A DNA stretch of 64,000 nt from Octopus vulgaris (lineage: Eukaryota). Location of the stretch: positions 73,594,001 to 73,658,000 of the forward strand of contig OX597825.1 of the NCBI GenBank assembly GCA_951406725.2, in the 5' to 3' direction. Numbering within the stretch: the stretch's first letter is position 1; every line of letters starts with the position of its first letter. The notes beneath the pieces were generated by a model. The model saw only the letters and a list, made by a program, of their open reading frames with translations, did not search any database and was not told the DNA's origin. Of this stretch, positions 80-60,397 are shown one piece after another. Position numbers and translations under genes: made by a program.

Positions 80-459
80 CATCATCACCGTTCATCACCG
101 TTTAACATCCGTTTTCCATGCTAACATGGGTTGGGCAGTTCTACCGGGGTCTGGGAAGCCAGGAGGCTGCACCAGGCTCCAGTCTTATCTGGCAGTGTTT
201 CTACAGCTGGATGCCCTTCCTAACGCCAACCACTCCGTGAGTGTAGTGGGTGCTTTTTACGTGCCACTGGCACAGGGGCCAGAGGAGGCTGGCAAACAGC
301 CATGATCAGTTGGTGCTTTTATGTGTCACTGGTGGTGCTGGCATCGGCCACATTCGGATGGTACTTTTTACATGCCACCGGTACGGGTATCACAACTACA
401 ATTTCCATTTGATTTTTATTTTGATGTTGATGTACTTGACTCAATAGGTCTCCCCAAGC
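80..459 (-). mobile_element. Family D repeat (RTE-type 3' end / RTE-tailed SINE) ending in (GAT)n
   Basis: Reverse complement has GGTTGGCGTTAGGAAGGGCATCCAGCTGTAG...CCCATGTTAGCATGGAAAACGGATGTTAAACG plus a TGA/GAT tail. Related copies: ~4558-4730(-), 12735-12840(-), 13880-13992(+), 14010-14270(-), 14685-14790(-), 19640-19925(+), 21690-21890(-), 22375-22642(+), 26424-26765(-). Confidence 0.75.
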
Positions 460-2675: not shown

Positions 2676-2772
<97 letters not shown>

Positions 2773-3117
2773 ATATATATATATATACACACACACACAT
2801 AGATATACATCATATACCTTTATATGTATACATGAGTATTTGCATAAACGTATGTATATGTATATATATATATATACATGTATACACACACACACACACA
2901 TATATATAATTCATGAACATACATGCACACATATTTACACACACATATATACAAGTTTCATATTCTTCTTCCTTCTCCTTCTCATCATCATCATCATCTA
3001 ATGATAATGATGATGACAACATACACATATTTTTGCATGTATATATATCTGTATCTGTATGTATATACATATATGTATATGCATGCATGTATATGCATGC
3101 ATATAAATATGTATATA

Positions 3118-4856: not shown

Positions 4857-5120
4857 AGAGATGCGTGGTTTAGTGGTTAGGGTGTCAGCATCATAATCGT
4901 AAGATTGTGGTTTCGATACCTGGACCGGCGATGCGTTGTGTTCTTGAGCAAAACACTTCATTTCATATTGCTCCAGTCCACTCAGCTGACAAAAATGAGT
5001 AATGCTGCGATGGACTGGCATCCCATCCAACTGGGGAACACATACGCCATGGAAACCAGGAAACCAGGAAACCAGGCCCATGAGCCTGGCTAGGCTTTAA
5101 AAGGGCCCATTTATTTATTT
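4857..5120 (+). mobile_element. Family C tRNA-derived SINE (V-SINE-like central block)
   Basis: A box TGGTTTAGTGG, B box GGTTTCGATACC, then GCGATGGACTGGCATCCCATCCA. Other copies at 10073-10949(-), 10955-11196(-), 40745-40905(-), 58884-59140(+), 59880-60015(-). Confidence 0.8.
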
Positions 5121-9143: not shown

Positions 9144-9483
9144 ATATCTATATAAAAACATAATAATCAAGATTGATTTGATTACCGAAACACTTCTAGA
9201 AAGTTCTCCACTATGTTTGCAGTCCTGCAACTAAAACCAATGAAAGCGGGAAAGAGTGAAAAAAAAGGACACTTCATGCCAACCAGCTTGAACTTCGATT
9301 GGCACTAGTTTATCTTATTCCTGGAGAGATTTATAATACCAGACTGCGTTTATACATAAGTTATGTAGTCCAAAGCCTTCAGCTATCTTTCATTTAGAAA
9401 GAAAAGATCAAAGTTCGGATCCAGTCTGGCATTATGGACATACATGGAGACATGTGTCATAGCAGTAAGAGTGTTGCATTCTT

Positions 9484-9902
9484 ATTTCTTTACTGTCCAC
9501 AAGGGGCTAAACACAGAGGGGACAAACAAGGACAAACAAATGGATTAAGTCGATTATATCGATCTCAATTTGGTACCTGGTACTTATTTAATCGACTCCG
9601 AAAGGATGAAAGACAAAGTTGACTTCGGTGGAATTGGAACTCAGAACATAGCGACAGACGAAATACCTATTTCTTTACTACCCACAAGGGGCTAAACACA
9701 GAGGGGACAAACAAGGACAGACAAATGGATTAAATCGATTATATTGACCCCAGTGCGTAACTGGTACTTATTTAATCGACCCCGAATGGATGAAAGGCAA
9801 AGTTGACCTCGGCGGAATTTGAACTCAGAACGTAAAAACAGATGAAATACTGCTAAGCATTTTGCTCGGTGTACTAACGTTTCTGCCAGCTCGGCGCCTT
9901 TG
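9484..9902 (-). mobile_element. Family B SINE, dimer of the 184-bp unit, inserted in an old family C SINE
   Basis: Units start at ~9484 and 9668 with one tRNA head at the right end. TSD GT(G/A)TTGCATTCTT at 9471-9483 and 9903-9915. Confidence 0.85.
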
Positions 9903-10384
9903 GTATTGCATTCTTGATAATAACATTGTGGCTTTGATACTTGGACCTGAGAGTGTGTTGTGCTTTTGAACAAAGCACTTCTTTTCATATTGCATTAAGC
10001 CAACAAAAATAAATAATCTTGCAGTGTATCAATGTCCCATCCAGGAGGGGAACTTTTGCACCACAAAGCTCAGGTAAGGTAAAAAGGTAAAGTTACCTCT
10101 TTGAGTCACACCGACCCATAAGGGCTGGTTTACTGGTTTCAGTAGTATATACATTCCTCACCTGGACGGGATGCCAGTCCATTGCAGGATTACTCGCTTT
10201 TTCCCACCTGAGTGGACTGGAGCAATTTGAAATGAGGTGTTTTGCTCAAGAGCACAATGCATCACCCAGTCCAGGAATCGAAACCATAATCTCACTATCA
10301 TGATACAGTTCTATATTTAAGAGATGAGGAATAATGTACATTATTTACATTTAACGGATATTTGTGCTCATCTTGTTTGTTGTT

Positions 10385-10430
10385 AACACAATGTTTCGGC
10401 TGATATACCCTCCAGCCTTCATCAGGTGTC
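10385..10430 (-). ncRNA. Type I minimal hammerhead ribozyme motif (left arm)
   Basis: GACAC CUGAUGA A GGCUG-GAGGGUAUAU-CAGCC GAAAC AUU^GUGUU. Stem I GACAC/GUGUU, stem II 5 bp. Stem III AACAUU is one CpG-type change from palindromic AACGUU. Confidence 0.8.
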
Positions 10431-10680
10431 TTGGGGAAATTTCGAACCTGGGTTCTCATTCCTAAGGTATGTTTCAATGTGATCATCATTATTATTATTA
10501 TTGTTATTATTGTTGTTCAGGTTACAGCGTGGAATTGATTTCAGAATCTTGGGGTTCTTAGCCAGTGCTCTTAACCACCATGCTATATGCCCACAGGCAT
10601 ATGATGTAGTGGTTAAGAGCGCGGGCTACTAAACCCAAGATTCTGAGTTCGATTCCAAGCAGTGACCTGAGTAGTAGTAG

Positions 10681-10732
<52 letters not shown>

Positions 10733-10802
10733 AATAATGATGATAACAACATAACAACGAAAAATACCTTGGGAATGAGAACCCAGGTTCAAAATTTCCC
10801 CA

Positions 10803-10845
10803 GACACCTGATGAAGGCTGGAGAGTATATCAGCCGAAACATGTT
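10803..10845 (+). ncRNA. Type I hammerhead motif (right arm), cleavage region damaged
   Basis: GACAC CUGAUGA A GGCUG-GAGAGUAUAU-CAGCC GAAAC, then AUGUU (about 3 nt shorter than the left arm). Confidence 0.7.
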
Positions 10846-11225
10846 AACAACAAACAAGATGAGGGCAAATATCAGTCAAATGTAAATAATGTAAATAATG
10901 CTCACTATCGTGAGTCCAACACACTAACCACTAAGCCACGTGCCTCCACAAAAGAACTTTCTTAAGTTATACTGATCCATAAGGGCTGGTTTTTCAGTTT
11001 CATGGTATATATATATTTTCCACCTGGACGGGACATCGGTCAGTCACAGAATTACTCATTTTTGCCAGCTTAGTGCATCAGGGCAAAGTGAAATGAAGCA
11101 TTTTGCTCAAAACATGTGTTGCTTGGTCCAGGAATTGAAACCACAATATGATGATCATGAGTCCAAAACCTCAACCACTAATCCATGTGCCTCTGCCAGA
11201 GAGTTCAGGAAACTGACCTTATTAA

Positions 11226-58482: not shown

Positions 58483-58883
58483 TTATTTTATAATTTTGGC
58501 ACAAGGATATCAATTTTAGGCAAAAGGGAAAGCCGATTACGTTAATCCCAATGCTCAAATGGTATTTGTTTTATCGATCACAAATGGCAAGGTCAGCCCT
58601 TGCGACATTTAAACGCAGAATGTAAATAGCCGGAAGAAATGCAACTCAGCATTTTATTCGACGTGATAACGATTCTGCCGGCCCGGTTCGCCGCTTTGAT
58701 GAGCATAAAATTATAAAGAGCTGGGCGTCACAGGGTTTTATGCTTGTTTTCATAATTGCTCCGCCTTAAGGGCAAAGAACATTAACGATCCTTCCTGGCA
58801 TTCTATAAGAAATTAAATATAGGGTGGACTAAAAATCAAACACCGTAACATTTGACATTTTATTTAACGGTATTATTATTATT

Positions 58884-59140
58884 GTGGAGGCGCGTGGCTT
58901 AGTGGTTAGGATGTTGAACTCGTGATCGTAAGGTTGTGGTTTCGATTCCCAGACCGGGCGATGCATTGTGTTCTTCAGTAAAACACTTCATTTCACGTTG
59001 CTCCAGTCAACTCAGCTGGCAAAAATGAGTAATGCTGCGACGGACCGGCGTCCCGTCCAGGTGGGGAATTTCTACGCCACTGAAACCGGGAAACCGGCCC
59101 TTATGAGCCTGGCATGGCTCGAGAAGAAACATTTATTTTT
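58884..59140 (+). mobile_element. Family C SINE, full length
   Basis: GTGGAGGCGCGTGGCTTAGTGGTTAGG head and B box GGTTTCGATTCCC; TSD-like TTAA(CG/TA)GTATTATTATTATT on both sides. Confidence 0.9.
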
Positions 59141-60397
59141 TTAATAGTATTATTATTATTATTCAGTTTGTTCATCATGTACAAGTACATATCTATTCAT
59201 CACTATTTTATTTATATTCATTTTTAGACAATTGTGGAGCGTATTGAACTTACTTTAAGCGTGACATTTGTCCCATCCCATATATAGATTATATGCTGGC
59301 CGTATTTTGTTTAGCCAAACAGGACTTGTGTTTAGTCCCCATAAGATAATAACTAGAAACAATCTGGTTAATAGAGAGTGTTTTGTGGTTTTAGTGGCTC
59401 CATCTTGAGGAAGGAAAACAACAAAAGCGACCGATTTCAGGCCCTCCATGACTGTTGGTAGAAAGGGATGAAAAACAGCGATACTCTCGCCTTTCGCAAA
59501 TCCTAACAAATCCACCATCCCGGCTATTAGGGGTTTTGTTGTTATTTAGCTCCGACTGATCCAAGATTTTCCAGCTGTGAATTAAGTCCCAAAACTTGGC
59601 CTAAATTCTTGAATTAGAGTGGGCCCTGCTAAGGACACCCAGAAGCCAGGCTGGGGTGTTAAATCGAGGACCGAATTGAACTCACTACCCGAGAACAGAT
59701 ACAACCCACACGATAAGATTTACATATAAGTTTTACCTGAAAGATTAAACCCAACACCTGGTTACCTGTATGGTCCAACAGTGCAGAAGTTCACCCCCGC
59801 CTCCTTTTTTTCGGTAGGTCCACCATCCATCGACGGATCGCAAGGCCCGTGGTAGATCCATCATCTGATTCATCTTTGCTAACTTAGTAAACTTAAGCAA
59901 CGTGTACTAAAGTGTTCTGCCCGTGAACACAACACACCACCAGATTCTAGATTCGAACCCACAATTTTACGACCATGAGTATAACGCCCTTAACACTAAG
60001 CCGCGCGCTCTCCACCATAACTTTTACCACCCGGGCTTTGGTCGATCCGAGCCTCAGGTAGAAAACACTTTCCCCAAAAGGCGGCGCAATGATGTTACAT
60101 CCCAAACCTCGTAAGTACGAAGAGACTATCTTAACTACAGAGCCATATTTGAGTTAGGAAGGATTCTAAGAGGACTGGAATCCAATCTGTTCAGAATATC
60201 AGAAGAATGAAAAAAATGTCTATGAGTTTGTTGACCGAGTGGTTCTATGTAACAGAAATAGAGTCTCACTTGTAATATAACGAGATATGAAGACTTTGGA
60301 AACAATTTTTAAAGCGTAATTCGTATACTTAGATTTGTGAATCACATACACATCATATATATATATATATATATTATCATATATATGTGTATGTGTG

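Follow-up and report, generated by a model that had tools for sequence, protein, structure and literature searches.

A palindrome within a host SINE

The window, i.e. the whole 64,000-nucleotide stretch of the Octopus vulgaris genome that was analysed, contains a 597-bp palindrome in which two inverted arms surround a short centre (Table 1), as recognised in the original prediction. The arms are 73% identical over the self-alignment. The centre reads TGCCC-AC-AGGCA, and what had been described as a spacer of 2–3 nt is indeed short but is really the loop (10593–10594) of a hairpin native to the parent element. The left arm had been called ~30 bp longer; it does extend ~26–30 nt further at its outer end, but overall the right arm is the longer one because of its linker. 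Similarly, the ~45 bp regarded as unique sequence are present but contain the ATG of an ORF (at 10775 on the plus and 10459 on the minus strand).

Further features were read correctly from the start. Neither arm has a T4 run in sense direction, one 13-bp target-site duplication (TSD; 12/13 positions identical) encloses the entire palindrome, and the insertion splits a host SINE: excision of the element together with one TSD yields an ungapped 81-column match to another copy in the window. Both hammerheads are mutated, the right one lacking the cleavage triplet and the left one carrying a CpG change in stem III, and the window copy is therefore dead. The host SINE family has at least four copies in the window, which are 73–82% identical (10070–10960 on the minus strand, 10962–11193, 4864–5067 and 58882–59143). 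Another SINE-like repeat, at 9478–9900, consists of two tandem copies with a spacing of 184–185 bp and 87–90% identity.

Table 1. Coordinates of the palindrome and its surroundings in the window, and of the corresponding region in the metagenomic locus L332 (last line, locus coordinates)
Feature	Positions	Strand	Remark
Left arm	10304–10592	-	self-alignment
Right arm	10595–10900	+	self-alignment
Native 5-bp hairpin at head 5' end (positions -7..+5), inversion junction	10588–10599	.	loop oriented as right arm
Left target-site duplication, 13 bp, within host SINE	10291–10303	.	family mode 12–13 bp
Right target-site duplication	10901–10913	.	12/13 identical to left
Host SINE split by insertion	10070–10960 (~10070–10303 + 10901–10960)	-	self-alignment and excision test
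PLE tail, ~30-nt extension, left arm only	10304–10332	-	family positions ~+233..+261, inside ORF 5' end
Minimal type I hammerhead, left arm	10385–10430	-	CpG change in palindromic stem III; motif by eye
Minimal type I hammerhead, right arm	10803–10845	+	3-nt deletion removes cleavage triplet
ATG of PLE ORF, left arm	10457–10459	-	family position +107
(TAA)n-type linker, left arm	10480–10517	-	approximate bounds
(TAA)n-type linker, right arm	10670–10758	+	approximate bounds
tRNA-Arg-like head, left arm, +1 at 10592	10518–10592	-	B box decayed
tRNA-Arg-like head, right arm	10595–10669	+	A box 10602–10612, B box 10645–10656
First ~42 codons of PLE ORF, right arm	10775–10900	+	frameshift from 1-nt deletion; ends at tail-minus RT start (~+235)
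L332 pLTR, headed architecture	2759–3040		stop, TATA-like motif, A box (2829), B box (2885), short AAT linker, ATG overlapping hammerhead

The parent Penelope-like element

The genome (2.8 Gb, 227 contigs) was searched with sequences of the arm. Positions in the family are counted from the first G of the head as +1, and most of the sampled copies were obtained on contig C1 and with exact-match patterns. A 26-nt tail pattern gave 9009 exact matches and a 24-nt head pattern 3293, with none for either reversed control. At ~6% divergence the 9009 exact 26-mer matches imply that the genome harbours tens of thousands of arms.

One of the 30 best relatives of the arm (L022) has RT and endonuclease-like frames immediately upstream of the head. 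When loci with the endonuclease stretch were collected, 27 of 30 ran from the ORF stop via ~30 nt into the head and/or the hammerhead; the remaining three are near-identical copies ending before the ORF end. On the other side, four loci from a search with the N-terminal region (L214, L209, L225 and L210) proceed through head, linker, ATG at +107, hammerhead and tail in frame into the ORF. Since the arm is contiguous with the RT and endonuclease ORF on both sides, it represents the pLTR and the ORF start of an autonomous Penelope-like element (PLE). The hammerhead and the tail of the arm make up the ORF's first ~52 codons (of ~835), and the head comes after the ORF stop. The suspicion that PLE machinery stands behind the palindrome was thus justified, and the search for an autonomous PLE with RT and GIY-YIG sharing the hammerhead or the tail has turned up such an element.

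The majority sequence of 26 long copies gives a single 837-codon frame, the RT of which matches Pfam RVT_1 (E 2.6e-10). A natural stop-free frame of 569 aa can be aligned across RT and endonuclease with an Anolis protein of 836 aa (P0042), at 37% identity (E 2e-108). From the fit of its N-terminus, P0042 appears to be the Poseidon ORF of PMC11167929. The GIY-YIG endonuclease was assigned by alignment through the endonuclease region of P0042, homologs carrying PF01541; the Pfam GIY-YIG profile did not match the family's own frames. As in the described Penelope/Poseidon EN+ PLEs (PMC11167929 and PMC8557442, in the portions available), a single ORF of ~835 aa comprises RT plus a GIY-YIG domain at the C terminus, the pLTR is a partial tandem, the hammerhead lies over the ORF start, there are two 3' ends ~30 nt apart, and an inverted 5'-truncated partner is present, the tail being confined to one end. 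Domain order and identity fit the Penelope/Poseidon clade, the quick trees having included no labelled Neptune or Nematis references. The family is a high-copy, decayed RT and GIY-YIG PLE. A search for other PLE families in the genome returned apparently the same family, with none in the fetched loci or the window.

According to these data the parent unit (~2.65 kb) begins with a TATA over the stop of the upstream copy, followed by a short leader with a 5-bp hairpin, the tRNA-Arg-like head and (TAA)n. It continues with the ATG, the hammerhead, the tail and the rest of the ~835-codon RT and GIY-YIG ORF up to the stop and the next head. Insertions of later date, LINE frames and SINEs among them, often interrupt the (TAA)n linker (L044, L061, L065, L084, L089, L090), and 12 of 90 heads have no part of a hammerhead inside the fetched locus. 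Near-identical copies with common flanks (L077–L079 as well as L057, L058 and L060) are segmental duplications and not independent insertions.

The hammerhead was identified from its core motif, read by eye, and was not called by Rfam. In the family majority the type I core is intact and stems I–III are present, in agreement with the minimal type I hammerhead that had been proposed, and the sequence predicted for its cut site occurs among the family copies. Five of 118 copies are perfect, and position 7 is the only common non-CpG core variant; the differences among the family copies are those of neutral decay. The hammerhead-encoded residues are kept at the N-terminus of a relative at 53% protein identity (P0005). 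They are likewise kept in P0124 and P0138; two amino-acid changes flanking the loop in this set of three would, judged from the proteins, be compatible with a compensatory stem II pair. Among 197 arms, a sample that favours long arms, 5' ends are not enriched at the predicted cleavage position (+177). A mild cluster at +175..190 (8 of 48 copies continuing into the ORF) coincides with a palindromic 8-mer. Copying of sequence 3' of the cut, which had been listed as a caveat, does occur, and is accounted for by internal RT initiation on uncleaved RNA: the hammerhead of Poseidon_Ac from Anolis contains the ORF start, and the tail is delimited by two internal positions at which RT begins synthesis (PMC11167929, as far as available).

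Copy starts and the tRNA-like head

Of 90 copies selected by the head, 73 begin at -7..+2. There are two sharp modes, one at +1 (23/90) and one in the hairpin at the leader G, which precedes the A box by 13 nt. Only five of the other 17 copies end in the next ~125 nt, and three of the 17 are segmental duplicates. In a control sample selected by the tail, 35 arms extend past the linker: 11 end at +47..+8, 18 at the head start and six continue, i.e. 18 of the 24 arms that reach the head start stop there (several end values of -12..-19 in this sample are fold-back or junction noise). Background truncation amounts to 0.0–0.4% per nt over +81..+200 (197 arms). Among 48 copies in which the tail runs into the ORF (from 71 matches), four extend to the head start, beyond which none continues in native context. 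Zero of four, or zero of six with L214 and L447, is non-discriminating at a pass rate of 19% (P ~0.3–0.4); the observation is consistent with an RNA end, but the copies are too few for proof. In the same set (L411–L458), 20 of the 48 copies start at +199..+249 and hold little beyond the tail region. The start of the RNA probably lies at about -6..+1 relative to the head.

The head best matches tRNA-Arg genes of the same genome (49–51 of 75 nt, z 7–8; 25 distinct tRNA sequences sampled), and its tRNA origin rests on this alignment to the genome's own tRNA genes. It was called as a tRNA neither by ARAGORN, in the window or in any of 56 loci, nor by Rfam. Near one family copy, ARAGORN reported a tRNA-Glu(TTC) (L135:2319–2391). 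In the family majority A and B boxes lie at tRNA spacing, so the Pol III-type head of the original prediction does exist, and it sits at the start of most copies. The TATA overlaps the upstream stop codon, 28–24 nt before the leader G. A protein-coding PLE with a tRNA-derived, promoter-like head at which most copies begin is the unusual part of the family; the accessible descriptions of Penelope/Poseidon PLEs differ in this respect, as they mention neither such an A/B-box head in the pLTR nor a sharp 5'-end hotspot at it.

Whether the head works as a promoter has to be weighed against another reading of the same PLE origin, in which it is a fossil tRNA or SINE insertion. Transcription would then start further upstream, or Pol II would use the TATA, and the hotspot would be due to stalling of RT, to fold-back or to RNase P-like cleavage of the tRNA-like structure. 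As the hotspot coincides with the hairpin, stalling or fold-back could indeed produce it without an RNA end, and 25 of the 90 head-selected copies show a palindromic extension or short fold-back of at least 7 nt. The spacing of the TATA suits Pol II, too, and among dead copies the head is conserved no better than the rest of the arm. Moreover, the Penelope promoter of D. virilis is internal and TATA-less and has been likened to LINE promoters (PMC2377424, in the part available). The sharpness of the two 5'-end modes and the tRNA spacing of the boxes argue against a mere fossil.

The distribution of T4 runs speaks to both sides. The 2610-nt sense strand has none, compared to a mean of 2.9 in codon shuffles (P 0.03); composition-weighted recoding gives P 0.002 and an order-2 Markov model P 0.22. 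Because G4 runs are absent from the ORF as well (expected 1.06, P 0.28), the T4 argument is weakened. On the other hand, 27 related metagenomic PLE frames are not depleted (126 observed vs 123.8 expected; four short frames have none), and four other LINE frames of the same genome contain six vs 4.0 expected.

A second PLE in which A and B boxes occupy the corresponding position likewise disfavours a non-promoter head. It is located on the metagenome contig JGI1357J11328_10009043 (L332) as an intact tandem of two 100% identical units of 2791 bp, each with two T4 and no T5, and its protein is 37% identical to that of the octopus family. The box patterns were fixed before this locus was examined. 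Shuffles give them at most at 1e-4 per pLTR, and the eight other distinct pLTRs tested in the same manner had no A/B boxes. The head of L332 does not align with that of the octopus family (z -0.3). With respect to the origins of the heads, a 54-row quick tree forces two changes, while in an 18-row AU test a single clade is not rejected (p 0.25). tRNA-like stretches also occur near other metagenomic PLE matches, outside the pLTR position (L337:2513–2580, L372:2944–2996, L358:142–180). A metagenome scan with one protein gave no match, and neither did a search of viral contigs.

None of the sequencing runs with matches to the family is catalogued as RNA, and four presumed RNA runs consist of contigs, which reveal neither RNA ends nor strand nor editing. 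We see about an even chance that the A and B boxes act as a Pol III (TFIIIC) promoter. The reading of the head as a non-promoter falls somewhat short of even odds, and Pol III transcription of a coding PLE appears plausible.

Inverted pairs and related elements

The fetched loci comprise 121 inverted pairs with spans of 112–1343 bp and variable centres. In 108 of them exactly one arm is tailed, in the other 13 not. A TSD score of at least 8 was obtained for 85 pairs vs 2.4% in mismatched flanks, with a mode of 12–13 bp; in 36 pairs a clear TSD is absent. The claim that the palindrome was the inserted unit therefore holds in so far as a pair is one insertion with one TSD (85/121). It does not hold for a unit of fixed form, because length and centre vary, and the fixed spacer that was to be looked for is not seen among these pairs. 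The 3' ends of the arms are bimodal, 42 of 75 lying at +217..239 and 32 at +257..261. The palindrome is a product type and not a family, and it matches the published PLE signature of an inverted 5'-truncated copy with a 30–40-bp tail at one end (PMC8557442, in the portion available). Two tail-less pairs (L097, L294) have outer flanks that are mutually reverse complementary, unlike the TSD-flanked pairs; they may have arisen by later inversion or be artefacts of assembly.

Alleles agree between the two arms of a pair at +145 (28 of 32 concordant, P 0.004) and at +64 (11 of 13, P 0.02), and both arms therefore stem from one RNA or one source locus; at +155 and +200, where variants are few, there is no concordance. 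The hairpin-junction pattern has 808 strand matches (~450 loci) vs 404 in the native upstream context. At nine of ten oriented junctions it is the tail-less arm that carries the native loop, as in the window, which led us to reject plain snap-back copying. Since a snap-back copy cannot exceed the length of its template, two cDNAs are needed. From what is known of PLE biochemistry, the PLE protein would nick both target strands 12–13 bp apart, and the two cDNAs would be primed internally on the same uncleaved RNA, at ~+229–235 and ~+260. We suggest that priming on the 5' pLTR copy would run off the RNA end after 235–265 nt, and that the cDNA end may then fold back on the native hairpin and anneal to the partner cDNA, giving a near-perfect palindrome. 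The window palindrome is very probably a dead, ordinary PLE inversion product, namely a double insertion of an autonomous PLE of the Penelope/Poseidon type, truncated at the 5' end and inverted.

Initially, the element had been read as an independent non-autonomous SINE with tRNA head and hammerhead, for which short Pol III transcripts would be mobilised by PLE protein in trans and the palindrome would be the unit. This scenario could explain why most head-bearing copies are short and begin at the head (73/90). Short copies are also slightly less diverged (0.057 vs 0.066; 0.084 vs 0.107), although the selection patterns differ, and short transcripts from any 3' pLTR with TATA would yield the same products. 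Yet the arm consists of coding sequence and pLTR of the autonomous parent, the pairs vary in centre and span, and the upstream TATA is lost in short copies. A comparison of 45 ORF-linked with 73 head-start arms revealed no diagnostic allele (smallest P 0.026 of 68 tests), and the between-group distance (0.112) lies inside the within-group values (0.117 and 0.105). As the short arms lack diagnostic alleles, they do not form a separate SINE lineage: of the hallmarks of a tRNA-derived SINE the family has the tRNA-derived head with A and B boxes but not the separate non-coding lineage. The SINE as a lineage of its own is thus largely refuted, and we regard this scenario as unlikely. A DNA transposon of the MITE or foldback type, with long terminal inverted repeats, would fit the inverted ends and the single TSD per pair, but it is practically dismissed by the continuity of the arms with the RT-endonuclease ORF, the asymmetric ends in 108 of 121 pairs and the varying centres, in place of fixed symmetric repeats around a constant internal unit. 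A non-LTR retrozyme was rejected as well, the pairs being head-to-head and not head-to-tail tandem monomers.

Several known systems resemble the octopus PLE in part; the comparisons refer to the accessible portions of the papers cited. The combination of tRNA head and hammerhead had been thought to be undescribed. This was mistaken, because Schistosoma Sm-alpha has both: Sm-alpha and Sj-alpha (PMC2770079, PMC6765202) carry a tRNA-derived head or Pol III promoter followed by a hammerhead. They are, however, non-coding tandem SINE-like repeats, whereas in the octopus head and hammerhead form the terminus of a coding PLE and occur in inverted pairs. Helenus, Ajax and Cassandra (TRIMp3; PMC10886601) have a small-RNA-derived Pol III promoter inside the terminal repeat, but are non-autonomous LTR elements of 0.3–1.3 kb; autonomous non-LTR elements use Pol II according to the same source. 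Animal non-LTR retrozymes, which are considered to be PLE derivatives (PMC7229834, PMC8969392, bioRxiv 10.64898/2026.07.22.740005), share the type I hammerhead and the derivation from PLE pLTRs. They differ in that their head-to-tail tandem monomers form circRNA, while the octopus arms are head-to-head pairs with TSD and without a separate lineage. In S. mansoni, dual minimal hammerheads on opposite strands, 100–700 bp apart, have been ascribed to truncated PLEs (PMC4209133); unlike for the octopus family, the available text reports no tRNA head. Cephalopod genome papers (PMC6962438, PMC13282606) give Penelope and SINE classes without the headed structure in the parts accessible. In the literature that we searched, neither a tRNA-derived head within an autonomous PLE's pLTR nor transcription of a coding PLE by Pol III is described; subscription journals, supplements, Repbase and Dfam lay outside this search, so the family may be curated in the latter two.

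A bolder scenario, which we rate as less likely than not, would be that on at least two occasions autonomous PLEs have swapped their Pol II promoter for a tRNA gene that they had captured. Pol III would transcribe the whole ~2.7-kb terminator-free, uncapped RT-endonuclease RNA, and internal priming at the 5' end of this RNA would mass-produce SINE-like palindromes. If true, a protein-coding retrotransposon driven by Pol III would be to PLEs what TRIMp3 is to LTR elements, and would represent the state that directly precedes Sm-alpha-like SINEs. As L332 is intact, the Pol III question is directly testable. To automatic annotation pipelines the tens of thousands of arms will resemble tRNA SINEs or MITEs. 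The family also documents, in a large natural sample, the formation of PLE inversions with two priming sites, one RNA and hairpin-guided joining, a step that is called unresolved in the accessible literature. Should the head function as the promoter, Pol III would produce the transcript of a 2.5-kb ORF, its translation would proceed in the absence of a cap, and SINEs that combine a tRNA with a hammerhead would have a path of origin in PLE pLTRs.
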